From UHGV virus genome UHGV-1341775: a stretch of 15,929 bases of DNA; one strand, written 5' to 3'. The translations under genes were made by a program, and so were the position numbers. Position 1 is the stretch's first letter; every line of letters begins with the position of its first letter. The stretch comes from a virus. Positions 331-12,982 of this stretch are shown here, piece after piece. Below the pieces are notes generated by a model. The model was given only the letters and a program-made list of their open reading frames with translations, was not told the DNA's origin and searched no databases.

Positions 331-2882
331 TGGACCGTCTTTCCGGTTTCGGTAGTAATCTGTTTATGCATTGCATCAATCTTAGCATCGGCATTAGCGC
401 CAGCTTGAGCAATAGCATCCGCGATGGTTTCATCTAAGCGATCTTGTAAACCAATCAGGTCTTCCAGTGCTTCTTTGTCCTGATCGTCCCAGCTAATGGT
501 AGATTTCATTTGCATGAAATACGGTTCAGACCAAACAGCATCACCCATACCGAAAATATCGTAGTGAGCACCACGGATATAATAATCACCGTCAGCCAAA
601 TCAAAGGAAGTATGACTAACGCTATTGGTAGTCACTGCCCTTGCATCGGAGAAAGTGTTATCGGTTGCATACTGAATGATTGACCCTGCATAGTCATGTT
701 CTACGTCATCCGCCCAGCTAACAAACGCAGTATTAAAGCCACCACGCGCACTAAAACCTTTCATCGGCTTATGTTGTGGGTTGATAGCCACTAAACGCGC
801 TGGGGCGCTCTCTGAGTTGTTATAGCCCTTAGCCGATACTTCTACCGTCAATTCACGGGAAAGGCCGTTAAACTGGTTCATATCAAGCGTATAGGTCCAT
901 GATTCAGGATCGCGGGTACGGTACTGAATAGACTTACCAGCCTTGTTAGTCACCTTGATAATGTAGGCTTCAAACAGGTCGCTAAACTTGTTAGCTTCGC
1001 CGTTGATCATCACATCTAATTGTTGCTGATTTTCCCATTCGATAATCAGATCATTGCCTTCGAAAGTACCAGGTGAACTACCCTGATTTTTGATGCGGAT
1101 CACTGGAGTCGGCAATTCATAGGTAACTTCTGGATTCTGGTTAACCAGTTCCACCCATTCGGAACGAGCAATAATACCGAAAGCACAAACGCGATAATCG
1201 TAGGAGCGATCTTTTGCCAGTGCATTGATATTGAAAATTTGCTGTGAAGTCTGTCCCAGCTTAATCCAGTTAGGTGATCCACTCACACGATAATCAATCT
1301 GGAAACCGTAGCGGTTAAAATCTTCCGGTGCGTCCCATGTCAAAGTTACGTTTTTACCGTGGATTGTCTCACCAGTTGCCTTAATTCTGAAATTAGTCGG
1401 TTTCTGTACTGTCATTGAATCCGGTAAACCGGTAGGTCTATTGTCTGGAGTCGCCGCATAGTTCAGGTCAGTATAAACCTGAGAATTATATTCTGTGGCG
1501 GTGATAGTCATCATCCCAGCAATACCAGAATCAATCGAGCGATCAATTGCAGTAATGCGCCAAAGTGAATTATTCAGTTTCAATTCATCATAGGTAACGC
1601 TAATAACATCCCACACTTCGGCAGTGAATGCGTCAGTAGTCATGAAGCTGATAACCTGAGTGATACGAGATTTATTTCGCTCAATGCTCGCGAGTTTATC
1701 AATCTGGGCTTTAGACTTAACAAAACGATATTCAATATCTTTAGCGATAATTCGACCATCTTGACGAATAGTAGCATCGTTTTCAGCATCAGCCGGATAA
1801 CGCAGCATTTGCTCTGAATAGTCAATTGATGGTTCTTGATACATCGCGTTAATGGTATTGAAATAACCGTTAGTGCCACCTGTTTTCAGTGATACTTTAC
1901 CCATCATAATATTGTCTTCATTGAAGGTATGCTTAACAATATCAGGAGCATCCAGTTTCAGGGTAATTCTTCCAAAGGATTCGAACATCACCCCGCCGAA
2001 AGTCTGCATAAGGCTAGTCAAGTTCTCTTTAAAGCTGGCGTTCGGATCACATGCACCGTTTGAATGTAGGTCCATCTGACGTACTTGCTTACGTACTTTC
2101 AGGAATGAATCAACGTTAATGTTTTCAATCGGTACTGATAAACCATATTTTTCATTTGTTAGGTAATGGAAAATCTGGTCCACGCCGTTAGTGCTAGCCT
2201 CAATAGCATTGGTTTCAAGGTTACGGATTTTTAAGCCCATAACATCGACCGCTACCTGGCTATTTGGTTGAAGGATATCAACACCAGCAGCCAAAGATTT
2301 ATCGTCACGACGTAACACAATACACATGGTCGCAATGCCGTTACCCTGATACCGATCATCCCAATCTGCGCCCAAATGATGTTTAGCCAGATCCAATGCA
2401 GTGTTAGGATTCTTACCCGTGCGGAACTCAACTTCTAAGACTTTCCGGTATTCTTCTTTAATGTTTCCTTTATCGAGAATACCATCACGAATTGTCATAT
2501 TCTGACTAATGAGAACATTTTTATTATCGATGTGCAGTGCTTTAAAGTGATCGATCTCACCTTCGGCAATAGCAAAAATTTGTACTAGTTTGTTATTTTC
2601 ACGCTGTGAAATTGCTTTGTAAACGCAGATTGCACCAGTTCGGGTAGTACCGAAAAGAACGGGTAATACTGTCTTAGGATCGTTTGATGTTCCTAGTGTC
2701 ACCGCATTATCTGGGCTTTGTACTTTCGGTGTTTTTGGTGCGCCTACAGTGGAAGCGATCAAGGTCATTGCACCAGCAGCCATACCGATAGCGACTGCGG
2801 TCATAACAGAAAATGTTGCAGCAGCAGCCATCCCAGCAGACGCACCAGCAATAACCGCGCCTACCAATATTTCAAATCCCAT
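1..2882 (-). CDS. Central tail fibre / host-specificity protein (lambda J-like); N-terminus complete, C-terminus beyond window start
   Basis: The minus frame is open from the ATG at 2882..2880 to the window edge (at least 960 codons). It is absent from the ORF track because no stop lies in the window, and no competing ORF is listed in that frame. The start overlaps the upstream stop as TAATG and is preceded by GGTGA. Translation begins MGFEILVGAVIAGASAGMAAAATF... and contains a J-like block (IFAIAEGEIDHFKALHIDNKNV), fibronectin-III-like repeats (NVTLTWDAPEDF...YDYRVCAFG; FNTAFVSWADDVEHDYAGSIIQYATDNTF) and C-terminal coiled repeats. Spot-checked codon by codon at the window edge (...GRVAGIHMSAT). 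Confidence 0.7.
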   Translation of the reverse strand, partial: MGFEILVGAVIAGASAGMAAAATFSVMTAVAIGMAAGAMTLIASTVGAPKTPKVQSPDNAVTLGTSNDPKTVLPVLFGTTRTGAICVYKAISQRENNKLVQIFAIAEGEIDHFKALHIDNKNVLISQNMTIRDGILDKGNIKEEYRKVLEVEFRTGKNPNTALDLAKHHLGADWDDRYQGNGIATMCIVLRRDDKSLAAGVDILQPNSQVAVDVMGLKIRNLETNAIEASTNGVDQIFHYLTNEKYGLSVPIENINVDSFLKVRKQVRQMDLHSNGACDPNASFKENLTSLMQTFGGVMFESFGRITLKLDAPDIVKHTFNEDNIMMGKVSLKTGGTNGYFNTINAMYQEPSIDYSEQMLRYPADAENDATIRQDGRIIAKDIEYRFVKSKAQIDKLASIERNKSRITQVISFMTTDAFTAEVWDVISVTYDELKLNNSLWRITAIDRSIDSGIAGMMTITATEYNSQVYTDLNYAATPDNRPTGLPDSMTVQKPTNFRIKATGETIHGKNVTLTWDAPEDFNRYGFQIDYRVSGSPNWIKLGQTSQQIFNINALAKDRSYDYRVCAFGIIARSEWVELVNQNPEVTYELPTPVIRIKNQGSSPGTFEGNDLIIEWENQQQLDVMINGEANKFSDLFEAYIIKVTNKAGKSIQYRTRDPESWTYTLDMNQFNGLSRELTVEVSAKGYNNSESAPARLVAINPQHKPMKGFSARGGFNTAFVSWADDVEHDYAGSIIQYATDNTFSDARAVTTNSVSHTSFDLADGDYYIRGAHYDIFGMGDAVWSEPYFMQMKSTISWDDQDKEALEDLIGLQDRLDETIADAIAQAGANADAKIDAMHKQITTETGKTVQASADTLKSLIATSEQASSTKIDQVKAELKGDITSEVSASATTLKQAIATSEAASASKIDQVRVEMDGKIAGVNQEADVKIDALKGTINSKYNLAVNADGRVAGIHMSAT

Positions 2883-3301
2883 TATTCACCCCCGAATCTA
2901 TAAACTTGTTCATAGTCAATGTCTGAAACAGGAATGGTCATCCAGATACCATCTTCTTCAACGAGGCCATAACCGGAATAATGAGGAACTACGGAATAAT
3001 ATTTGCGGTTTCCTAATTTGTGGGCTGTGACCAGTAAGTCGCCGTCCTGTAAATCATCAGTGACTAATTTGAAATGTTTCTTAATTGGTTGAAGGATATT
3101 TGAATACCCGCTTAATTCTTTGCAGATTTTCAAGCCTTCTTCTTTAGTTGAATATTTTTTATAAAGAGAATTATATAGGTCAGTACCAGCGAGAATATCG
3201 ATGATCTTACATGCAATTAGATTGCAATCATTCTCGCCTTGAACGAACTCCTGACCTATTAAAGAATTGATGTAATCGGTGATAAGCCTAGTTTTTAGCA
3301 T
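2882..3301 (-). CDS. Tail-tip assembly protein, NlpC/P60-like cysteine peptidase domain (lambda gpK-like, C-terminal half only)
   Basis: ORF 2882..3457 trimmed to the ATG at 3301, which has a perfect GGAGG 8 nt upstream (ATGGAGGTATTCAACATG). The longer start would overlap the upstream gene by about 110 nt. The 139-aa product MLKTRLITDYINSLIGQEFVQGENDCNLIACK... has a Cys in a GxxDC context and downstream His residues (LLVTAHKLG...VVPHYSGYG) matching the NlpC/P60 pattern. Stop overlaps the next start (TAATG). Confidence 0.55.
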   Translation of the reverse strand: MLKTRLITDYINSLIGQEFVQGENDCNLIACKIIDILAGTDLYNSLYKKYSTKEEGLKICKELSGYSNILQPIKKHFKLVTDDLQDGDLLVTAHKLGNRKYYSVVPHYSGYGLVEEDGIWMTIPVSDIDYEQVYRFGGE

Positions 3302-3347
3302 GTTGAATACCTCCATGCTGTTATTTACTAGGCTTAGGGAGAAGGGA

Positions 3348-4001
3348 TTATTTCTTCGATGAATGCCACTTACTTTCGCTATTCCACTTCCCGGCACGAG
3401 AGAAGAATAGATCGTTCTCGTTTCCAACATAGGATCGGTGGATACCATCGGAGGCATGACTTCGAGCGTTTTTATCTAGAACTTCCCAGATACTATTAAG
3501 CTGAAATTCTGATTCGTTTTTACACTCATCATCTTCATGTTCGATGTTAATACCGATGGAATCGACTACCCCACGGAAAACAGGGTAAGTGGTTTCAACC
3601 TTGCCCGTGTTGGGGTTAAGGAAAACCATCTCGATTTTCACATCAGATTTATCGAATTGCTTGTTTCGAATGAGAGTAATGTATTCTTCGCGAACGTTAG
3701 AAACGGTTACGTTAATCCCGTTGTTGTTGATCTCCTTCTCTTCGGTATTCGATGAGATTTGAAGGAAATCGCCCGTTGCGAGATACGTAAATCCGTTATA
3801 GTCCAAATCGAAATACCCATCTGTAAGCCGTAGAACATCCCCTGACGCGGTAATCACTTCGATAATGTGAAACATCGATCCAGTAGAGAAAAGCTGCGGT
3901 AGCGTCAATCTAGACACGTTCTGACCTGTCTGGTCGTTGTATACCTCAATGAAGTCAAGATTAGTGCATAGTTTGCTGAATGATTCCTGAATAGTTGCCA
4001 T
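3348..4001 (-). CDS. Minor tail / tail-tip protein (position of lambda gpL; family not confirmed)
   Basis: ORF 3348..4055 trimmed to the ATG at 4001..3999, which overlaps the upstream stop (TAATG) and has GGAG about 8 nt upstream. The 217-aa product begins MATIQESFSKLCTNLDFIEVYNDQ.... The call rests on position in the tail-tip cluster after the tape measure gene. Confidence 0.5.
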   Translation of the reverse strand: MATIQESFSKLCTNLDFIEVYNDQTGQNVSRLTLPQLFSTGSMFHIIEVITASGDVLRLTDGYFDLDYNGFTYLATGDFLQISSNTEEKEINNNGINVTVSNVREEYITLIRNKQFDKSDVKIEMVFLNPNTGKVETTYPVFRGVVDSIGINIEHEDDECKNESEFQLNSIWEVLDKNARSHASDGIHRSYVGNENDLFFSRAGKWNSESKWHSSKK

Positions 4002-4576
4002 TATACATTCTCCACTAATTCGAATTTCATCTTGCCAATCTGGGCGATCTTCCAATCGATATTTTCAGTTTTGAGAACAAATTCACCTTCTACGTTCTGA
4101 TACTTGATCACCTCACCCGCCAGGACGTTCTGACGCAAGTTAGGGAAGAGTTTCATTTCACCGCCTGATTTCACGTCTTCGGTGATCGTGTAGATTTTCT
4201 TGTGGTTCTCAAACTGGATGACAGTTCCCGCTTTCAGTGTTCCGGTGAAGTTGGAGATTCTCACCTTACGCCCACCGCGAGCAGTACCAGCAGCAGCCGT
4301 TACCATCTGGCGTACATCACCTGTATATTTTGAAAAGTAAGACAGTGGCACACTAAAAGGACGACCAAAAAGGTGACGTGCTACAAATTCTTTTACTTCG
4401 TTAATATCCTGAGCCATGTAATTCGCGGTAAATTCTGCTTCGTAAAAATGGATGCCAGTAAAGCGACGCTGGAACTTACCGGAGATAGATTGCGCCTTGA
4501 AGAAAGGTTGTTTTGATTTAAGAGTAAAATCTGTGATTTTAATATTCTTGGATTTGAACATAGAAAAAGCCCCCAT
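4001..4576 (-). CDS. Minor tail protein immediately after tape measure (distal tail protein / gpM-position candidate)
   Basis: ORF 4001..4597 (GTG start in the track) trimmed to the first ATG at 4576..4574, giving MGAFSMFKSKNIKITDF... (191 aa). An alternative ATG at 4561 lies just after a U-tract. The call rests on position between the tape measure and tip proteins; I do not recognise the family from the sequence. Confidence 0.45.
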   Translation of the reverse strand: MGAFSMFKSKNIKITDFTLKSKQPFFKAQSISGKFQRRFTGIHFYEAEFTANYMAQDINEVKEFVARHLFGRPFSVPLSYFSKYTGDVRQMVTAAAGTARGGRKVRISNFTGTLKAGTVIQFENHKKIYTITEDVKSGGEMKLFPNLRQNVLAGEVIKYQNVEGEFVLKTENIDWKIAQIGKMKFELVENV

Positions 4577-4612: not shown

Positions 4613-7042
4613 TTACATCTTACGACGCTGTGCGTCTTCTACCGCCTGAGCAACTAACTTAGCGTGACGTTTGATAGCATCCATGACCATCTTGTCTGAG
4701 CTATTAACGTTGCCGTTAATGTTCAAAGGCGCATTAACTTCAATCGGCTGAGAGTTACCACCGCCTGATTTTTGAGCAGATAAGAAGTCTTTCAAATCAC
4801 CGTTAGTACGCTGATCAACTACTCGTTCACCCTTATCAAGCAACCATGTACCCTCACGAGGGATGTTATCAATACCATCATGAGCCATACCGCTAACGTT
4901 AGTAGACTTGATGTTTGCGATGTTCCCCATGTTCTGAGAAACAGCCAATGCAGCAGCAGCGATTTTTTGACCTGTGGTTACGTTGGTCGGATCGTTCCAT
5001 GCATCGGTAGCAGCCGTCCACATGTTCACCGTCGCTTGTCCGATAGAGAATGCTTTATGAGCATTGAAAGCCATCTGCATAGCTTTAGTGTTTTCCTGCC
5101 CGAAGAGAGTCATTGCAGCAGCAAAACCGCCGTACATATCATCGGCTATTGACTGGCGAGCATCAGCATATTTCTTCTCAATTGCAGCCATTCGTTTTTG
5201 ATGGTTTTCATTGAGTTTTTCTAATGCTTCCATCCGTTTAGCCGGATCGGTGATCCCATCAATCTTGAGTTTATCGGTTTTATAATCTTGTTCGGCTTCC
5301 GATTTCTCTTTATCGATTGCATTAAATTTAGCAAACGGGTTATTTGAGTCTTGATAGTCTAAGCTATTGGTCAACTGATTGGTTTTAAAACCATCCATTC
5401 CATGCAAAGAATCTTCAATCTGTGAATAACTTTGTTCGGTATCATTCACACGACGCATATATTCTTCGTAGGAGATAGCCTTACCATCAAGTAACCGTTT
5501 ATGGCTTTCTAACTCATTGTCCCTGATTTGTTGCAATTGTGTTAAGGCATTCAAAGCATCAACCGGATCAGCACCTAAAACCATTTTGTATACGTTTTCA
5601 GTATTCTGATCGATTAATGATTGGCGTTTCGCGGCTGCGTCTTGCTGAGAGATTAAGCCCAGATCTAAAGCAGTGTCCAAATCTTTCAAACTGGATTCTA
5701 ATTGCTTGTTTTGAGAAGCAATAGACGCGGCGACTTGCCCTTGCAATTTAACATCAAGTGCATTCAGTCGCTTGATTGCATCCTCGCGTGCTTTCTGTGC
5801 TTTTTCTGCGGCTTCCTTAGCCTTTTTAGCTGCCTCTTCCGCTTTCTTTTTGGCTTCTTCCTCGGCTTTCTTCTCGTTGCCAGACTTACCCAATGAAGCT
5901 GGTCGAGTTGGTGTAGTCGGGATAGTCAAATCACGGTTAGGATCTGCCTTGCGGGTTAGATGTTCCCCGTTATCGACAACAATCAGAGAGCCATTTTTCT
6001 TATAAGAATCACCAAAACGTTTCTTAAATCCTTCTACATCAAAGCCAGCAGTACGAGGATCGACACCAGCACCACGGATCGCGGCCTTTTCCCAATCTGC
6101 CAGATTATTCCAACGCTTTTCTTTATTGTACTTGTCAATAATTTTTTGAGCGTCTTTATGGTTGGCGTTAAGAATACCACCAGTTGCGGTCTTGCCTTCT
6201 TTATTCAGTCGATCTAATGCCCTGAATAGAGAACTCTTTTCCCAATCAATATTAAACCAGTCAAATAACCAGTTTAAGCTATCAACCAAAGGACCAGTAA
6301 TGGTCATGCCGACACCTTTCAGGTTATTTTCCAGCTTATTAATATTTTGAGAAAATTTATCATATTTTTTAGCGTTTTCTTCGGTGACGCTAACAGATTG
6401 ATTCTGAATAGCGATCATCGCCTCTTGAGCACTATTATATTTCTCAAGCTGGCTGGTCATATGGCTTGAATCACTGGCTAAAGATTCCATCATGAACTTG
6501 ATTTCAGCCATTGATTTTCCGGCTTTCTTCATGTCATAGAACACTTGGATCGCCGCTTTCATACCACCTTGCGGATCAGTCATGAAGTGAGCATAGTTTT
6601 CTAACTTAAGGCCAACCGATTCTAAGTCATCAGCAATACCACCACCGTTAGCCCACGCATCACCCATCTTATCTAAGGTGTCTTTGTTGATATCACCGAA
6701 TTTTTCAACTGTTAGGCCAGTACCAGAAAATTCCTTTTCCAGTCTTTGAAGGGATTCAATCGAGAGTCCGGTCGCCTTAGATACTTCTGAATATTGTTTA
6801 ACGTATTCCGCGCCAGCTTTAGCGGCTGCAACCACTGCGGTCGCAACTAAGCCGATACCACCAGCAGCCAAACCAGCAGAGCCAGCGATCCCACGAAGAG
6901 ATCCAGTCAGACCAGATAAGCCACCACCAAAATCAATATTACTTGCCTTTTCAGACAAACTATCGAGAAGGTCGGCGGCTTCATTGGTACTTCTCCTTAG
7001 ACCTTTATTATCCCCTTCTATTGTTACTATATGTCTTGTCAT
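4613..7042 (-). CDS. Tail tape measure protein
   Basis: The 809-aa ORF is the second-longest gene in the tail module and sits directly after two small chaperone ORFs. It has a long Lys/Glu/Ala-rich coiled-coil region (KKAEEEAKKKAEEAAKKAKEAAEKAQKAREDAIKRL) and Gly/Ala-rich hydrophobic stretches near both ends (GIAGSAGLAAGGIGLVATAVVAAAKAG; GQKIAAAALAV). The ATG at 7042 is preceded by GGGG. Confidence 0.8.
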   Translation of the reverse strand: MTRHIVTIEGDNKGLRRSTNEAADLLDSLSEKASNIDFGGGLSGLTGSLRGIAGSAGLAAGGIGLVATAVVAAAKAGAEYVKQYSEVSKATGLSIESLQRLEKEFSGTGLTVEKFGDINKDTLDKMGDAWANGGGIADDLESVGLKLENYAHFMTDPQGGMKAAIQVFYDMKKAGKSMAEIKFMMESLASDSSHMTSQLEKYNSAQEAMIAIQNQSVSVTEENAKKYDKFSQNINKLENNLKGVGMTITGPLVDSLNWLFDWFNIDWEKSSLFRALDRLNKEGKTATGGILNANHKDAQKIIDKYNKEKRWNNLADWEKAAIRGAGVDPRTAGFDVEGFKKRFGDSYKKNGSLIVVDNGEHLTRKADPNRDLTIPTTPTRPASLGKSGNEKKAEEEAKKKAEEAAKKAKEAAEKAQKAREDAIKRLNALDVKLQGQVAASIASQNKQLESSLKDLDTALDLGLISQQDAAAKRQSLIDQNTENVYKMVLGADPVDALNALTQLQQIRDNELESHKRLLDGKAISYEEYMRRVNDTEQSYSQIEDSLHGMDGFKTNQLTNSLDYQDSNNPFAKFNAIDKEKSEAEQDYKTDKLKIDGITDPAKRMEALEKLNENHQKRMAAIEKKYADARQSIADDMYGGFAAAMTLFGQENTKAMQMAFNAHKAFSIGQATVNMWTAATDAWNDPTNVTTGQKIAAAALAVSQNMGNIANIKSTNVSGMAHDGIDNIPREGTWLLDKGERVVDQRTNGDLKDFLSAQKSGGGNSQPIEVNAPLNINGNVNSSDKMVMDAIKRHAKLVAQAVEDAQRRKM

Positions 7043-7045
7043 AAA

Positions 7046-7396
7046 TTACCCCGTTTGTGCGCTTCTGAGTTTCTCAAGCAAAGATGGATCGAACATGCTC
7101 AATGTTGCAGCTTTACGTTCTTCTTCTTTCTTGCGTGCAAGTTCTTCCAGTTCTTCTTTAGTTTTAAAGAGTTTTTCTTCTCTAATTAATTGGAATTGGC
7201 TAGGCTTGAGTTTACGTGCAGTTTCACGAGTCATTCCTTGTGACGTCATATACATGGAATATTGCAACATCGCATTCTGCATATCATGAAACGCGGGGCT
7301 TTGTGGTTCTAAGTAGGTGTCGAAAATGTATAATTTCCAAAACAGAGTGATTGGCATATTATCCATTTCATCTTTACTAAGCCCCGATCGCATCAT
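7046..7396 (-). CDS. Tail assembly chaperone, second ORF of the pair (lambda gpT-position; possibly made as a frameshift fusion)
   Basis: 116-aa ORF between the first chaperone and the tape measure gene. It lacks a recognisable Shine-Dalgarno motif. Its frame is the -1 frame of the upstream ORF and is open for 15 nt before that ORF's stop. Confidence 0.5.
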   Translation of the reverse strand: MMRSGLSKDEMDNMPITLFWKLYIFDTYLEPQSPAFHDMQNAMLQYSMYMTSQGMTRETARKLKPSQFQLIREEKLFKTKEELEELARKKEEERKAATLSMFDPSLLEKLRSAQTG

Positions 7397-7425: not shown

Positions 7426-7734
7426 TTACTTTACCTCGTTTTCAATTACTGCCGGATCTTGCATCAATGATGCTTGAGCAACCAAACCGATTAATTCACT
7501 TCGAACGTTAGTATACAGTGCCTTAACTTGTTCCATAGATTCAAATACTGGCTTACCGTCTTCATCTTCAATACAACGAAGAATAGAGCGTTCATCACGG
7601 TCTTCTTTATCAGTATTGAAAACATGTTCATTAAATTCTTTTACTGACATAGGGCGAGCATAGAAAGTGAATCCACCGATGGTCAAAGATTCGCGTTTCG
7701 GAGAGAGTGCGGCTAACATTTCGTTAATATTCAT
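7426..7734 (-). CDS. Tail assembly chaperone, first ORF of the pair (lambda gpG-position)
   Basis: 102-aa acidic ORF directly downstream of the tube protein gene and its terminator. It has a strong Shine-Dalgarno motif (AAGAGGAAA) and ends ...GTA AAG TAA. Confidence 0.55.
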   Translation of the reverse strand: MNINEMLAALSPKRESLTIGGFTFYARPMSVKEFNEHVFNTDKEDRDERSILRCIEDEDGKPVFESMEQVKALYTNVRSELIGLVAQASLMQDPAVIENEVK

Positions 7735-7816: not shown

Positions 7817-8287
7817 TTAGAGAGTCTGGAAAACAGCTTGTTTAACCGGAGCACCATCTACTACAAAGGTGAAGGTACGGCCTACTACCGCATCCTCACC
7901 ACCAGTCATGGTAGTTTTAGACAGGAAGCCGTTATAAGCGATATGTACACCAGATTTTTTCGTAGCATCGATGTAGTAAGCAATTTTAAGCTGTACGCGC
8001 TTACCGTCTTCGGTTGCTTTAATCAGTTTTTCGTGTACTTCGTTACCCGGCATGTAGTTGATCGAAAGTTCGATATCCGGTACAGACATACGACCAACCA
8101 GCTTGCGGTTATAAGCACCAGAGAAGTTTGGAACATCGATAGTAGAACGTTCCACACCAGTTTCCGGGAAAGCCGCACATTCTGGAATTTCCAGATAGGT
8201 TTCAGCATCAAGGTCTTTATTGTTTACGTCTTCTTGCAGAAACAGACCAACGAGGCCACCAGAGAAAATATCAAATTTAGTAGTCAT
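7817..8287 (-). CDS. Tail tube (major tail) protein, short paralog A
   Basis: 156-aa ORF with AAGGA 8 nt upstream of the ATG, followed by a strong terminator and then the chaperone pair and tape measure gene, which is the canonical major-tail-protein position. It shares motifs with the 277-aa protein at 13056..13889 (FDIFSGG vs LDIFTGS; ECAAFPETGVERSTIDV vs ENIAAFPTITESTDIQT; KATEDGKRVQLKIAYY vs KAVEDKTPLRFRMFYV). Confidence 0.55.
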   Translation of the reverse strand: MTTKFDIFSGGLVGLFLQEDVNNKDLDAETYLEIPECAAFPETGVERSTIDVPNFSGAYNRKLVGRMSVPDIELSINYMPGNEVHEKLIKATEDGKRVQLKIAYYIDATKKSGVHIAYNGFLSKTTMTGGEDAVVGRTFTFVVDGAPVKQAVFQTL

Positions 8288-8341: not shown

Positions 8342-8644
8342 TTAGCGGTTGCTCAAACGTCTATAACGAAGATGAGCGACCCCCCTATTTGTGCTAACGG
8401 TAATTACCGCCCCTTGCGGTGCAATACAAGAATGGATCTGTCCCCAATCATAACCCTTATGACTTCCAGACACACAAAAGCCATGCAAAAGCAATTCTGA
8501 GTCACCACCACCACCACCAGAAGAATGAGCACCAAATGAAACCGTACCGAAAGCGTCGGCTGTCCAACCGTTAGGAATATCAAACCATCCCTGATTCGCT
8601 TTACCGGCTTTATTGTCTAAAACGCCATACACCCAATATCCCAT
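8342..8644 (-). CDS. Glycine-rich small protein, paralog 3 of a tandem triplet (function unknown)
   Basis: 100-aa ORF MGYWVYGVLDNKAGKANQGWFDIPNGWTADAFGTVSF...GGGGGD...AVITVS.... Its ATG overlaps the upstream stop (TAATG) and AGGAG lies about 9 nt upstream. Confidence 0.6.
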   Translation of the reverse strand: MGYWVYGVLDNKAGKANQGWFDIPNGWTADAFGTVSFGAHSSGGGGGDSELLLHGFCVSGSHKGYDWGQIHSCIAPQGAVITVSTNRGVAHLRYRRLSNR

Positions 8645-8949
8645 TAATGCATTCTCCTAAATTGGAAGTGGTTTAAACTTCCTTTACCAATGCTAAAACT
8701 GACAGTAGCGCCAACACCAACTAAAGAACTAGCTCCCCAACTTCCGGCTTTACCAGCGTGATGACCTGATTCGAGAGTACCGTTTACATATAATTCGGCG
8801 TCCAAGTCACCTCCACCGCCAACGGCTTCGGCATGAACAGACACAATACCGCATGAATCAGTAACCCAACCATTAGGGATACCAAACCAGCCGCCATTAG
8901 CATAAATGCTAATAGCATTAGCCATTCTTCCAGCAACCCAACCAGCCAT
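8644..8949 (-). CDS. Glycine-rich small protein, paralog 2 of a tandem triplet (function unknown)
   Basis: 101-aa ORF MAGWVAGRMANAISIYANGGWFGIPNGWVTDSCGIVSVH...GGGGD...ATVSFS.... It starts 2 nt after the upstream stop, with GGAG upstream. Confidence 0.6.
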   Translation of the reverse strand: MAGWVAGRMANAISIYANGGWFGIPNGWVTDSCGIVSVHAEAVGGGGDLDAELYVNGTLESGHHAGKAGSWGASSLVGVGATVSFSIGKGSLNHFQFRRMH

Positions 8950-8951
8950 AA

Positions 8952-9248
8952 TTAAAACTCCATAAATTTAAAGTATTCAATACCACCGACACCCCCATGA
9001 CCAAAGGTGACAGTACATCCAGCAGGAACAAACGCATTAACCGTAAATCCCCAATCCCCACCACCACGACGACGCGCGGCGACCACACCGTCAACGGAAA
9101 TATGCATATCGCCCCAACCATCATTAGCAGTATGCCGCAAAACGGCAACACCAGCACGTCCGGGAACATATCCATTAGGAATATCAAAAACATGCCATTT
9201 TACAGCATCTATTTTAGTGCCTTGTTCATTACTTACCCAATAGCCCAT
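8952..9248 (-). CDS. Glycine-rich small protein, paralog 1 of a tandem triplet (function unknown)
   Basis: 98-aa ORF MGYWVSNEQGTKIDAVKWHVFDIPNGYVPGRAGVAVLRH...RRGGGDWG...CTVTFGHGGVGG.... AAGGA lies 7 nt upstream of the ATG, and the gene sits 38 nt downstream of the fibre gene. Confidence 0.6.
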   Translation of the reverse strand: MGYWVSNEQGTKIDAVKWHVFDIPNGYVPGRAGVAVLRHTANDGWGDMHISVDGVVAARRRGGGDWGFTVNAFVPAGCTVTFGHGGVGGIEYFKFMEF

Positions 9249-9286: not shown

Positions 9287-12200
9287 TTAACCAAATAATT
9301 TTGCTTCAATTGCAGCAAGACGATCGTGAAGAATTTTATTTTCTTCTTTCAGACGGTTATTTTCTTCTTTAAGAAGTGCAATTTCTTCGGTGTGTTCGTT
9401 GATTGCCGCAGTATTTAAACCAATAACACCGTTATAGTTCAAACGAAGAAGGTTTTCGCTATCTGGATCGCCTTCAACCAATTCCGGCAAAATAGCTTGA
9501 ACTTCCTGAGCAATCAAACCAGCATTAGGCTCCCACCGTTCGCTACCGTCTTCATTTAATCCTCGCTTTTGAAGGTACATATATCCGTTAATTTTTGAAA
9601 GTGTCTGTGATGCATTTTCAAATTTAACTAAATCCTTCTTCACGCGAATATCAGAACGGATATAAATGTCACGAACATATGTCGAATAGTTGTCATTCGC
9701 CTGGACTAGATGACCATGAGAGATAATAGCTTTATCAACTTCTGTCCATAAAGCACCGTGAGTTCCCCATAGTCCAGGATGTTCTTGATACATCGCACTC
9801 CATGATGCAATATGCTGTCCGTTTGCCATCAAGTTAATACGTCCATCACCACCATGAGCTAAACCAGTATCATTATCACCAATAGCAATTGATGCACCTC
9901 CCCAAACAGGAACCGTACCAACACCAAGTCTAGGAGTTTGAATAAAAGGGCTATAAAACATTCCGCTAGCATGAAACTCAAATACCCCTTGTGGATGGTT
10001 TTCGCCTGGTGTAGCTTCCGCAGAACCAACACGAATAACAGCTTGTCCCCATGCTCCCGGAGTACGACGTAAGCCAAAGTCAGCCTTAGTAGAATAACCT
10101 TGACCTGCGATCTGGCTATGTCCTTTAATAAGTGGATAATAGCTATCTTCTCCAACACTACCCTGATCAATAAAGATAGGTGCTTCTTCGCGCCACTGTC
10201 CATCCCATGCACCGGAATGATTAGCAACCCACTGTGTAGCGTTGATATAGATACGGTCTTTGCTAATACTAACATTATTAAAATTTTGTGGCGCAAGTGC
10301 TATCTCACCATTATCTGTGAGATGAACAGCCGCATTAGTCTTATAACTACAAAAAACTAATCCATTACCAGCACCACCTTTACCGATATACCAGTTATCT
10401 ACATCGTTACAAGTACCTTTCACATAAACAGCATCAGAATCAGTAGGAGCATTAACGGTAATAACGTTAGATTCACCATTGACTTTAAATCTTCCGAAGA
10501 ATGTATTTTGAATGGTGTTATCACCTTTACGCTCAAATTCTGCTAAAAATCCTTTTGAGTCACGAAGACTTAAAACGTTATTTCGACCTACATTGCTTGC
10601 CCCCCAATGAACAAATTCTAAGTAGTCCATTGATTGACGAGAACCAGCTTTAAAGAAAAGATTGTCCTCAAGACGAGTGCTACCATCAATTCCAAGATGC
10701 AAACAACGAGCGGTTTCAGTACCACCCAAATATAATCCACCGTCCGCAAAATCATAACTGAATGGTCTGCGATTATTCCAAGTACCAAAAGAATCTTTTA
10801 AATCGGTAGTAAGAATGTGGAAGCTAGAACCATCATTGCGTAATATCAAACCATAGTTACCGCCTCTAACAGCCAAACGAGCATTTTCAGATAATGCAAC
10901 TTCGCTATTCATTACAATTTTCTGGCCTCTACCGCCAGAAATCTGTAATTCACCGTTTTCGACCAAGTTTATCGAGTTTTGACCGTTATCGTTCCACCAA
11001 ATAAAATCTTTGGTCTGACCATCACCGAAACCAAACCAGCCATTACGAACATCTTGACCAGTGCGATAATCCATAAAATTAAAATGGCTTGATTCGTTTG
11101 GTCCTCGACGAATATCAATACCAGAATTTCCAGTGACACCGCCATCCAATGTTAATTTCTTGACATGTAACCCGGATGTTGCTGTCAGCAATAATTCCTG
11201 ATTTGTATCTTCGTATCCAGTAGCAAGACGATACTGGTTATCATCAACTGTCTCATGCCAGATAGTGGCAGGACCAGAACTACGGAAGCGACGCAACATC
11301 TTTTTGCTGTTAGTTTGTTGCACGTTCAAATGCTCAATGTCATATTGGCCTTGAGGGTTTCCAGCAAAATTTAACGTTCCACGGTTACTGAAACTGTTAA
11401 AGGAGTATATTGTATATGCATCATAGATATGATCAGCTACAGGTTTTTCGCCGACATATTCAGGTCGATCAAGTACAGTTAAATTAACATCGCTGGACGC
11501 TTGATATTCAACTAAAACAAGTGAAGTATGTTGGGAATATTGAGCATATATATCATAATTATCGCCGCTTGTATTAATGGCACAAAATTGGTTGTCATAT
11601 CCAGATATATGATGATATGCGACAATATTAATTCCTTTAGGGGCATTGTTGCCAGTCCTTATAACAAGTTCAATAATATTACATTGTCCCGTTTGGCCTA
11701 CGTTCCACCCATTACCACCAACCAATCTAATTTTAGCACTACGACCGTAGTTTTGTGGTAGATATACTGTAGCGATTTTAAACCATCCACTTTCAGAACC
11801 AAAATCGATGGTCTTCTGGAACATCCGGTCAATTTCTGCTTTCGAATATGCGCCAATTTCAGCCGGAGTAGGTTTATCACCTTCATGATACATGCGGTGA
11901 GAATATGCCAAATGTCCCAATTCATCATAGCCGTATGTTTTTACAGTCGGAACAACATTAGAACCATATGTAAAATCAAAACCGCGAGAATGATTTAGAC
12001 CGCTAGGATGTGGCACATGCAAAGCTAATGCCAAATGACCCGCCAGGTCATTCATGCGGAATGCACCAAAGTAGTCAAGATTGCGCGCATTTGGATCATC
12101 AAAATAGTTTGCGGTCTTAGATAGCAAATAGCCATCAGTGTAAGTGTTTACGTGCTTTTTGATGTACTTACCATCACTTGATCCATCGGCTGCATCAATA

Positions 12201-12982
12201 CGGCTTTCTAAGCGTGCCAATTCAGAATCAGTGTAAGACTTGTTATTGTCAACTTTGCTATGAATTGCTGTATTTTTGGCTTCAACATCACGGGTTAATG
12301 CTGCGACGTTATCCGCTGCCTCTTGCTTATTGGCTGCAATCACACCAGTAAGGTTATTGTAGGTGTCAGTTAACTGATTTTCCGCATAGGCTTTATTTGC
12401 TGCGATAGTCCGATCAGTTTCTGCCTTAATCAAATCAACCTTGTCATTGATTGCTTTGTCATTGCTTGCGATGGTTGCATCGGTACGGGATTTAATATCA
12501 TCAACTTTTTTATTGATGCGGGTGTCCAGTTCCTGAGTTGCTACAGCAGCCGCATTTTTATTAGCGTTGATGGTATCCGACAATTCAGCTTTAACACCAG
12601 CAAGATCGGAAGCAGCTTTATTTTTATTGGCCTCGATTGTCGCGTCGGTTTCGCGTTTAATTACATCAACTTTATTGTTAATTTCTGCGTGATTTGCTGC
12701 GATGGTTGCATCAGTAGTTTGTTTAATTTCATCTACTTTAGCGTGAATATTGCGGTCATTTACTGCAATTGTGCTATCCAGTTCTTGTTTGTTAGCATCA
12801 ACTTTAGATTCTAGTGCCGCGTGAGTTTCAGGAGAAACAGAGATTTGAACTACTTCATGATCTCGGTCTTTGGTAAAAATAACATGGTCTTTAAGGTTGA
12901 TTGCTACCTCACCGACCTGTAATTGTTCCGGCGTTGGTTTTTTGCCAGAAACATTAGTTCGTTTAAATTGGATCGACTGCAT
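9287..12982 (-). CDS. Side tail fibre / tailspike-like protein with C-terminal intramolecular chaperone (peptidase S74-type) domain
   Basis: 1231-aa ORF with GAGGTGA upstream of the ATG at 12982. Residues 60-255 form a repeat array (KVDxIKxxTDATIAAN units). The central region is rich in Gly/Trp/Asn, consistent with a beta-rich domain. The last 121 aa (about 9290..9652) match the self-cleaving chaperone domain pattern: predicted cleavage Ser|Asp in ...IYIRS|DIRVKKDL..., then AGLIAQEVQAILPELV, LNYNGVIGLNTAAINE and a terminal coiled coil (EENNRLKEENKILHDRLAAIEAKL). Confidence 0.75.
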   Translation of the reverse strand: MQSIQFKRTNVSGKKPTPEQLQVGEVAINLKDHVIFTKDRDHEVVQISVSPETHAALESKVDANKQELDSTIAVNDRNIHAKVDEIKQTTDATIAANHAEINNKVDVIKRETDATIEANKNKAASDLAGVKAELSDTINANKNAAAVATQELDTRINKKVDDIKSRTDATIASNDKAINDKVDLIKAETDRTIAANKAYAENQLTDTYNNLTGVIAANKQEAADNVAALTRDVEAKNTAIHSKVDNNKSYTDSELARLESRIDAADGSSDGKYIKKHVNTYTDGYLLSKTANYFDDPNARNLDYFGAFRMNDLAGHLALALHVPHPSGLNHSRGFDFTYGSNVVPTVKTYGYDELGHLAYSHRMYHEGDKPTPAEIGAYSKAEIDRMFQKTIDFGSESGWFKIATVYLPQNYGRSAKIRLVGGNGWNVGQTGQCNIIELVIRTGNNAPKGINIVAYHHISGYDNQFCAINTSGDNYDIYAQYSQHTSLVLVEYQASSDVNLTVLDRPEYVGEKPVADHIYDAYTIYSFNSFSNRGTLNFAGNPQGQYDIEHLNVQQTNSKKMLRRFRSSGPATIWHETVDDNQYRLATGYEDTNQELLLTATSGLHVKKLTLDGGVTGNSGIDIRRGPNESSHFNFMDYRTGQDVRNGWFGFGDGQTKDFIWWNDNGQNSINLVENGELQISGGRGQKIVMNSEVALSENARLAVRGGNYGLILRNDGSSFHILTTDLKDSFGTWNNRRPFSYDFADGGLYLGGTETARCLHLGIDGSTRLEDNLFFKAGSRQSMDYLEFVHWGASNVGRNNVLSLRDSKGFLAEFERKGDNTIQNTFFGRFKVNGESNVITVNAPTDSDAVYVKGTCNDVDNWYIGKGGAGNGLVFCSYKTNAAVHLTDNGEIALAPQNFNNVSISKDRIYINATQWVANHSGAWDGQWREEAPIFIDQGSVGEDSYYPLIKGHSQIAGQGYSTKADFGLRRTPGAWGQAVIRVGSAEATPGENHPQGVFEFHASGMFYSPFIQTPRLGVGTVPVWGGASIAIGDNDTGLAHGGDGRINLMANGQHIASWSAMYQEHPGLWGTHGALWTEVDKAIISHGHLVQANDNYSTYVRDIYIRSDIRVKKDLVKFENASQTLSKINGYMYLQKRGLNEDGSERWEPNAGLIAQEVQAILPELVEGDPDSENLLRLNYNGVIGLNTAAINEHTEEIALLKEENNRLKEENKILHDRLAAIEAKLFG
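12217..12805 (-). repeat. In-frame tandem coding repeats (about 21-aa units) in the N-terminal shaft of the side fibre
   Basis: Protein-level repeats TDATIAAN / TDATIEAN / SDTINAN / TDATIASN / TDRTIAAN spaced about 20-21 residues apart. Matching nucleotide repeats are visible, e.g. ttgcttgcgatggttgcatc at about 12463 and ttgctgcgatggttgcatc at about 12694. Confidence 0.55.

Follow-up and report, generated by a model that had tools for sequence, protein, structure and literature searches.

The window analysed here, a stretch of 15,929 nucleotides (nt) from the virus genome UHGV-1341775, contains the tail module of an Escherichia coli prophage, with every gene on the minus strand. At its left end lies the gene for a J-like baseplate-hub and central-fibre protein (1-2882; 960 residues are visible before the gene leaves the window). 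We propose that residues 1 to ~95 of this protein correspond to the structural domain at the C-terminus of phage lambda gpI, fused to J as its N-terminus and tucked into the tail tip as a plug. We put the probability of this reading at about 0.8. An initial annotation of the window had suggested that the protein begins with a fused I-like or membrane-active module; profile, hhalign, PHROG 32 and shuffle comparisons all support homology of this region to gpI.

In lambda, the genes lie in the order L, K, I, J. Virions contain gpI as a trimeric 'insertion protein' that plugs the lumen and supports the C-terminal coiled coil of gpH (Xiao et al. 2023, PMC10721106); a study of Ur-lambda agrees on the contact between gpI and the gpH C-terminus (PMC12617516). 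In the closed tip, gpI is resolved from residue 101 onwards: two helices predicted to be transmembrane, H1 and H2, are followed by the plug (residues 159-175) and by strands that run through the gpJ hub domains (Ge and Wang 2024, PMC11101478). gpI joins gpJ by beta-sheet augmentation, and it has been proposed that gpL plus gpI plus the N-terminal portion of gpJ are jointly equivalent to T5 pb3 (PMC10721106). In the open tip bound to LamB, gpI is visible only from residue 167, and H1 and H2 are proposed to enter the outer membrane (PMC11101478).

Fusions of this kind have been described before. In 2006, Iyer, Burroughs and Aravind reported some prophages in which TAPI and TAPJ form one fused protein (PMC1779556). 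In those proteins, as in ours, gpI-type sequence sits on the N-terminus of the host-specificity protein J. By description, however, they carry the whole of TAPI, including its ubiquitin-like domain, whereas here only the part after a Gly-Gly boundary is present. The fused J N-terminus is thus no new kind of system. Two points are modestly useful: the equation of the J N-terminus with the gpI structural domain has explicit support at the level of sequence, and the J start codon coincides with the gpI Gly-Gly boundary.

Homology to the structural half of gpI

The minus-strand translation of 1-2882 opens MGFEILVGAVIAGASAGMAAAATFSVMTAVAIGMAAGAMTLIASTVGAPKTPK... and falls into three parts. Residues 1-48 (2739-2882) form a Gly/Ala-rich hydrophobic segment, the putative counterpart of gpI H1/H2 (gpI ~101-156). 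Residues 49-71 (2670-2738; PKTPKVQSPDNAVTLGTSNDPKT) form a polar linker that corresponds to the gpI plug and its APKxxTPxxQxxDN motif. Residues 72-95 (2598-2669; VLPVLFGTTRTGAICVYKAISQRE) are predicted beta strands that correspond to the C-terminal strands of gpI (VLPVLYGEMRVGSRVVSQEIS) and to T5 pb3 262-285. The order of the parts, a hydrophobic ~50-mer, a polar linker and strands with an LPV(L/V)(F/Y)G motif, matches that of gpI at the level of sequence. Like lambda gpI (PDB 8IYK, 8XCG, 9E7M; PHROG 32), the J-like protein has APKxxTPxxQxxDN followed by a VLPVL(F/Y)G...R.G strand.

Several methods detect this relationship. phmmer, hmmsearch and hhalign all align the linker to gpI 156-187. When residues 1-140 were searched against PDB sequences with phmmer, lambda gpI was one of few matches, at E=0.04, J 6-99 lying on gpI 118-215. 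In a Smith-Waterman shuffle test of J 45-100 against gpI 151-223, z was 10 and none of 2000 shuffles reached the score. We aligned 25 J N-termini, with phages DCP80-like, henriette and V6Aob added; searched against the PDB, the resulting profile matches gpI at E=1.4e-6 (the construct of residues 134-223) and, in the full-length chain, at 8.4e-5 over residues 108-214, and T5 pb3 262-313 at E=1.3e-6. Positions 100-200 of the 203 in PHROG 32, 'tail assembly protein', are matched by the window protein (E=0.0019) and PHROG 32 by 10 of the 25 N-termini (best E=2.6e-10). The comparison with the gpI family that the initial annotation proposed was made with hhalign against an alignment of 15 gpI homologues: the probability was 96.7% (E=3.2e-10), with window residues 46-108 on gpI 156-223. 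On the strength of these sequence comparisons, we regard homology between residues ~45-108 and gpI 156-223 as shown. The only invariant column among the 25 diverse N-termini is G78.

Where does the module begin? In the gpI family alignment, an invariant G100-G101 closes the ubiquitin-like domain and is followed by F103, Q104, G108 and A109. M1 of the window protein aligns to gpI G101, and F3-E4-I5-L6-V7-G8-A9 to gpI F103-Q104-I105-V106-L107-G108-A109. The J-like protein therefore begins at the gpI domain boundary. Removal of the gpI ubiquitin-like domain by gpK has been predicted (PMC1779556) and appears in a meeting report (PMC12908700). The alignment of the start codon with the Gly-Gly pair is consistent with this processing, although we do not claim it as independent experimental support.

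The far end of the module is less sharp. When lambda I(1-212) is artificially joined to J(17-), the product aligns to the profile without a break and scores 33.4 bits; gpI alone scores 23.5 bits, and lambda J 20-37 by itself just 2.9 bits. This result fits the idea that what would be one polypeptide here is two in lambda. hhalign carries the last strand of gpI over window residues 98-108, so the I/J breakpoint probably lies somewhere in residues ~93-108. The initial annotation had confined the segment to positions 2730-2882. Its N-terminal start stands, but the I-like part extends as far as residue ~95 (nt ~2598).

The other half of gpI is missing. A Pfam scan of the N-terminal 110-140 residues gave only noise. 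It is uninformative, since of gpI the PF06805 model covers just the ubiquitin-like half, residues 14-97, which it matched in lambda gpI at E=1e-28. PF06805 has no match in the J-like protein. phmmer with lambda gpI 1-100 found no match in the open reading frames (ORFs) of the window or of the 26-kb prophage locus of E. coli strain PE15 (L001). To these two sequences we also applied a search for a gpI gene over all stop-to-stop ORFs of at least 40 amino acids in six frames. Lambda gpI matched only the J N-terminus in each (phmmer E=3e-4 and 5e-4, in this small set). The statement in the initial annotation that no separate gpI-like gene is present is thus upheld by the six-frame search, and nothing but a DUF6950 gene separates the hub gene from J. 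The I-like label holds for the C-terminal structural half of gpI and fails for the ubiquitin-like half. Lambda differs in both respects: its gpI is a separate gene between K and J rather than continuous with J, and it has an N-terminal ubiquitin-like domain (PF06805) that ends in Gly-Gly.

A structural model places these parts in relation to the J hub. We modelled residues 1-480 as a monomer with AlphaFold2 (AF2) from a 20-sequence alignment (pTM 0.76). Over residues 71-480 the ten-residue block means of pLDDT are 69-95, mostly 85-95. Strands 75-77, 79-83 and 85-91 have pLDDT 85-88 and lie within the hub fold; the gpI-like strands (75-91) pack against the first J strands (98-118). When the model was searched with Foldseek, pb3 of T5 and DT57C came first (E=9e-27 to 1e-23, TMq 0.68-0.71), followed by proteins of phage Chi and JBD30, lambda gpJ (E=1.6e-16), RcGTA (~1e-16), Sf11 and T1. 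RcGTA and roseophage R4C were matched in the hub core only (6tba_8A, 8gtc_M). As modelled, the J hub fold (hdII-hdIII-hdIV, with putative FN3 domains after it) is shown to start directly after residues 1-95. Pfam matches to the J-like protein fall below their cut-offs: PF13550 scores 20.5 bits (cut-off 23, E=4.6e-4) and fn3 20.2 bits (cut-off 25).

The hydrophobic segment and its start site

The translation from the ATG at 2882 given in the initial annotation was reproduced exactly on retranslation, and the predicted N-terminal peptide reads GFEILVGAVIAG... A Shine-Dalgarno-like GGGGGT (2888-2893) lies 5 nt upstream of the ATG and is kept in alleles 77-94% identical over the stretch. The TAA stop of the DUF6950 gene (2884-2882) and the J ATG (2882-2880) have one base in common (TAATG). 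In the diverged E. coli alleles RMDEC332 (L009) and 266917_2 (L010), the two genes overlap by 10 nt, not 1 nt. Even where this junction differs, the J ATG and the preceding GGGGGTGA are kept. Homologues 41-86% identical, from Salmonella, Citrobacter and metagenomes, begin at the same Met with the same type of segment.

The codons themselves carry the marks of selection. Over codons 1-48, comparison with two E. coli alleles (82% and 77% nt identity) gave ratios of non-synonymous to synonymous change (dN/dS) of 0.138/0.375 (0.37) and 0.071/0.623 (0.11). The L009 allele has an in-frame insertion of three codons, and so of three residues, inside the hydrophobic segment. These observations show that the hydrophobic segment is translated and under purifying selection.

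Its composition is extreme. G, A, S, T, V, I, L, M and F make up 47 of the 48 residues (98%), against 56% of the remaining protein, and A and G alone account for 46%, against 15% elsewhere. E4 is the sole charged residue, and the first Lys is K50. The top ten Kyte-Doolittle windows of 19 residues, among the 960 residues visible, all lie inside residues 1-48, with a maximum of 1.88. Arithmetic from the composition figures puts the chance expectation of such a stretch anywhere in the protein at ~1e-8. Composition and hydropathy thus bear out the hydrophobic, Gly/Ala-rich segment first described. Small-residue packing motifs had also been described. A stripe of eight small residues at i,i+4 spacing is present (A9-G13-G17-A21-S25-A29-G33-G37), but a stripe of this length was reached in 745 of 20000 composition-preserving shuffles (3.7%, p ~0.04). 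As the enrichment over composition is merely marginal, we set the small-xxx-small motif aside as evidence.

How does the segment relate to H1/H2? Lambda gpI 101-156 is similar in composition, and the best 19-mers of gpI have an additive Hessa dG of +1.5 to +2.7 kcal/mol, against +0.9 to +2.0 here. Significant similarity lies in residues 45-100; the hydrophobic stretch itself is I-like in composition and position. We take it to be the H1/H2 equivalent because of its position and the flanking homology, not its own sequence, and residue-level homology of residues 1-44 to H1/H2 is not claimed. The uncharged hydrophobic run of 45 residues is usually matched by ~34-49 residues in relatives at 17-35% identity to the window protein, and by 19-28 in five of the 25.

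Proposed plug, possible membrane entry and alternative explanations

Two further systems bear on what the N-terminus would do. T5 pb3 (PDB 7ZHJ, 7ZQP) is the best structural match for residues 71-480, and window residues 72-121 align to pb3 263-312. The pb3 plug lies in an insertion of hdII; it closes the tube, contacts the C-terminus of the tape measure protein (TMP), and goes to the outer membrane on opening. Unlike the J-like protein, pb3 has the gpL-equivalent hdI in the same chain, and its plug refolds into beta-hairpin legs rather than a hydrophobic helical hairpin. The second system is the 'megatron' of RcGTA and R4C (g15; PDB 6TBA, 8GTC). Its first ~46 residues are an 'iris/penetration domain' that shuts the channel and, as has been proposed, makes a pore in the outer membrane (PMC7296036, PMC10276861). 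There too a hydrophobic helix lies at the extreme N-terminus of a J-like protein, the hub core folds match by Foldseek, and the genes encode a distal tail protein, a DUF2163 hub, a small protein and a giant J-like protein. The RcGTA domain differs in that it is only 46 residues long and contains a single, short iris helix.

A mechanism can be sketched from what the structures of lambda, T5 and RcGTA show. Three J N-termini would lie inside the cone of the tail tip, with their strands woven into the hub domains and their linkers plugging the lumen. The hydrophobic hairpins would be hidden beneath the C-terminal coiled coil of the TMP, whose C-terminal helix would, by analogy with the gpH-gpI contact in lambda, be the partner held by the plug. 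Upon receptor binding, the cone would open, the plug would fall apart, and the hairpins would be freed towards the outer membrane. They would probably insert there and help to anchor the tip, line the exit for the TMP and DNA, or both. Fusion to J would make a 1:1 (3:3) stoichiometry automatic; the same 3:3 ratio to J as for lambda gpI is expected here. It would also make unnecessary the lambda assembly checkpoint formed by the ubiquitin-like domain and JAB, and its cleavable handle.

Several results weigh against this reading. AF2 gives residues 1-70 a pLDDT below 50 and no confident structure. This is expected because the segment would be ordered only inside the trimeric tip. The hydrophobic part resembles gpI H1/H2 no better than composition predicts (shuffle z=0.1). 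With slightly positive additive Hessa values, residues 1-48 look like marginal rather than classical transmembrane segments. The profile of the 25 N-termini finds no RcGTA or R4C chain in the PDB at E<=10. Even for lambda gpI, membrane insertion has not been seen directly, and the helices vanish from the open-state map (PMC11101478). The authors of the T5 study doubt that siphophages in general have an N-terminal helix that lines the pore.

Membrane insertion is the weakest step, and a role as plug alone is the main rival. According to this alternative, the helices bind the C-terminal coiled coil of the TMP and both seal and stabilize the closed tip, which is metastable, serving assembly, and are then discarded without ever entering a membrane. 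It overlaps the explanation that we prefer and differs in the last step only. The rival draws on the same marginal hydrophobicity, on the fact that insertion is merely hypothesized for lambda, and on the view of the T5 authors. Against it stand the uncharged runs of usually ~34-49 residues in distant relatives (19-28 in five of the 25) and the open lambda tip, in which the residues after H1/H2 point at the outer membrane (PMC11101478). We consider it possible, but doubtful, that the helices act as a plug and nothing more.

A second alternative is that the segment is a functionless low-complexity linker, the remnant of a linker between the two gpI domains. Iyer et al. did once describe a low-complexity linker, rich in glycine, between them, and across the gpI family the sequence varies and has many indels. 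Here, however, the segment is at the extreme N-terminus, with nothing to link. It is under purifying selection, its hydrophobic character and length are kept across distant phages, and its lambda counterpart is resolved as helices in the closed tip (PMC11101478). We judge this explanation very improbable.

Still less credible is the idea that J is exported or tethered, while the tail assembles, by a Sec-type signal peptide or a permanent inner-membrane anchor. N-terminal position and hydrophobicity would suit either, but the segment has no basic n-region: E4 is acidic, and no K or R occurs before residue 50. Its hydrophobic run is 45 residues long, whereas that of a signal peptide has 7-15. 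The assembly of tailed-phage virions takes place in the cytoplasm, which also counts against export or tethering. The homologous segment is internal in lambda gpI (residues 101-156), and this counterpart is seen inside the assembled tail tip (PMC11101478).

Equally implausible is a mis-called start, with translation from M18, M27, M34 or M39 and the hydrophobic codons partly untranslated: the segment does hold these four in-frame Met codons, but a downstream start is made very unlikely by the dN/dS values, the in-frame insertion, the kept ATG and Shine-Dalgarno-like site, and the starts of homologues. Down to ~25% identity, these have the equivalent Met as their first residue and the same hydrophobic run after it, and PGAP and independent gene callers pick ATG 2882.

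Distribution, gene context and significance

The fused N-terminus is not peculiar to this prophage. With HMMER, we searched 1.84 billion representative proteins exhaustively, using a profile built from residues 1-100 of five sequences. The search returned 22 matches at E<=0.001, nearly all of them in proteins of 800-2300 residues and at their own residues 1-100. The fused N-terminus is found in henriette and V6Aob, two Vibrio phages that have one shorter helix and a DUF6950 gene upstream, in Pseudomonas phage Lebethron and Pelagibacter phage HTVC202P, and in many metagenomic J-like proteins that are 21-33% identical to the window protein. The initial annotation had treated the segment as unusual. 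Alignment with related phages removes that claim, since many J-like proteins carry such a segment; being widespread in the J family does not refute the I-like reading. The fused layout is very common, standard and already explained.

Two of the proteins returned, P0017 and P0025, were rejected as spurious. They are repeat proteins in which a unit of ~90 residues, with motifs like NAIPLAFGDSVMGTI, occurs four to seven times; at E ~1e-6 to 1e-4, they match only the short LPVVYG-like strand, and that repeatedly. They call for caution in automated searches with the LPVVYG..R.G strand motif.

The split between I and J is placed differently elsewhere. On a soil contig (L006, ENA ERZ1761204, 4001-5059), a 352-residue protein combines an N-terminal domain of ~90 residues with a hydrophobic stretch, with strands like those of gpI and with the first J domains (FNIII-A_GpJ). 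A gene for 78 residues follows, and then one for the 2091-residue remainder of J, with Phage-tail_3. The K protein upstream has an NlpC/P60 domain only. We considered the N-terminal ~90 residues of protein P0028 as a ubiquitin-like domain and rejected them: BLASTP and Pfam find no similarity to that of gpI. The hub region is a hotspot of gene fission and fusion at which the split point varies. This agrees with the hypervariability remarked at the I/J junction (PMC13243795).

One relative comes from an odd context. The 141-kb record of Escherichia phage DCP80 (L003, PQ671644.1, 12763-25884), classified as a T4-like member of the Straboviridae, has a siphophage-type TMP, DUF2163 hub and J module. 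Its J is 41% identical to that of the window, and the module adjoins genes for endonuclease VII and an endolysin. The record may be a chimeric assembly or a case of prophage contamination.

Tail modules like that of the window occur in 57 of 5426 complete E. coli genomes, at 80-99% identity and always on the chromosome. In strain PE15 (NZ_CP041628), the prophage is 97% identical and adjoins ydcR/hicB, and PGAP annotates a serine-recombinase-type integrase. The J-like protein there has 1258 residues and the same PGAP start as ATG 2882. The gene order below is drawn from ORFs, Pfam and PHROG matches and the PGAP annotation of this prophage.

Upstream of J, in the position of lambda K, lies the DUF6950 gene (2882-3301, 139 residues; Pfam PF22262, E=3e-12). 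The initial annotation had called it K-like. The overlap of its stop with the J start was correctly described, but it is K-like by position only: the protein belongs to DUF6950 and shows no BLASTP similarity to lambda K. PF22262 is its sole Pfam match, with no JAB domain and no NlpC/P60 match, whereas lambda K, the Pfam control, matches NLPC_P60 and Prok-JAB and so includes a JAB/MPN peptidase partner. phmmer found no match to the DUF6950 protein among PDB sequences, and NCBIfam none to it, the J-like protein, the hub or the distal tail protein. A single-sequence AF2 model of the DUF6950 protein was unusable (pLDDT 39). In the RcGTA gene order, the g14 peptidase takes the position that DUF6950 holds here, where NlpC/P60, NCBIfam and PDB sequence searches give no match. 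DUF6950 occupies the same gene position in henriette and V6Aob. The mechanical ORF begins at ATG 3457 (2882-3457), with a 110-nt overlap with the hub gene; PGAP and the Pfam match point to the Met at 3301 instead. The DUF6950 sequence has an 'ENDC...H' pattern that recalls the catalytic residues of NlpC/P60, a likeness confirmed by no family or structure match.

Next come a hub protein like gpL and RcGTA g13 (3348-4001), assigned by Pfam, PHROG and PGAP, and a distal tail protein (4001-4561). The hub protein matches DUF2163/PF09931 at 26.2 bits (cut-off 26) and a PHROG 'tail protein' at E=2e-27, and PGAP names it 'DUF2163 domain-containing protein'. The tail tip of this prophage is of the RcGTA/phiJL001 style, not of the lambda style. 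The TMP gene (4613-7042) is recognized by position and size. It is followed by a T-like chaperone gene (7046-7396; weak Phage_tail_T match) and a gene for a gpG-like tail assembly chaperone of 102 residues (7426-7734; 16425-16733 in L001), identified by position and a weak Phage_TAC_13 match (E=2e-4). PGAP names the latter protein 'cytochrome', probably a misannotation.

Beyond the tail tube gene (7817-8287) stand three tandem paralogous genes of ~100 residues each (8342-8644, 8644-8949 and 8952-9248). The products are 26-44% identical, have in common W4-V5, F.IPNG, a Gly-rich loop and DWG, and have no Pfam match. On their other side is the gene for a tail fibre of 1231 residues (9287-12982), which is thus upstream of the tail tube gene and not after J. 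This protein has a T4 gp34-like trimerization domain (PF21446) and, at its C-terminus, a Peptidase_S74 intramolecular chaperone domain (PF13884). Alternative minus-strand frames of known genes hold two ORFs (8918-9193 and 9859-10296) for very hydrophobic peptides, whose 19-residue Kyte-Doolittle values exceed 1.6 along most of the sequence. These ORFs are most likely artefacts of non-coding frames.

What does the fused N-terminus mean for the J family? We tentatively suggest that this widespread class of J proteins is a naturally 'pre-cleaved' gpI that starts exactly at the reported gpK cut. What is needed would then be a free, buried, hydrophobic N-terminus, and the pair of ubiquitin-like domain and JAB would be a dispensable, lineage-specific checkpoint. 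This is a speculative extension of the homology, and we think it possible rather than probable. The gpI plug with H1/H2 in lambda, the pb3 plug of T5 and the iris/penetration domain of RcGTA and R4C appear to be variants of one element, although the three structural descriptions have been treated largely separately in the literature. When gpI seems to be missing from a tail module of the RcGTA-like or DUF2163/DUF6950 type, annotators should check the first ~95 residues of J. If the three hairpins, with their six Gly/Ala-rich helices, do form an outer-membrane conduit for the TMP and DNA, this prophage would be genetically simpler than lambda, with one gene and no processing step, as a system for studying how siphophage DNA crosses the outer membrane.

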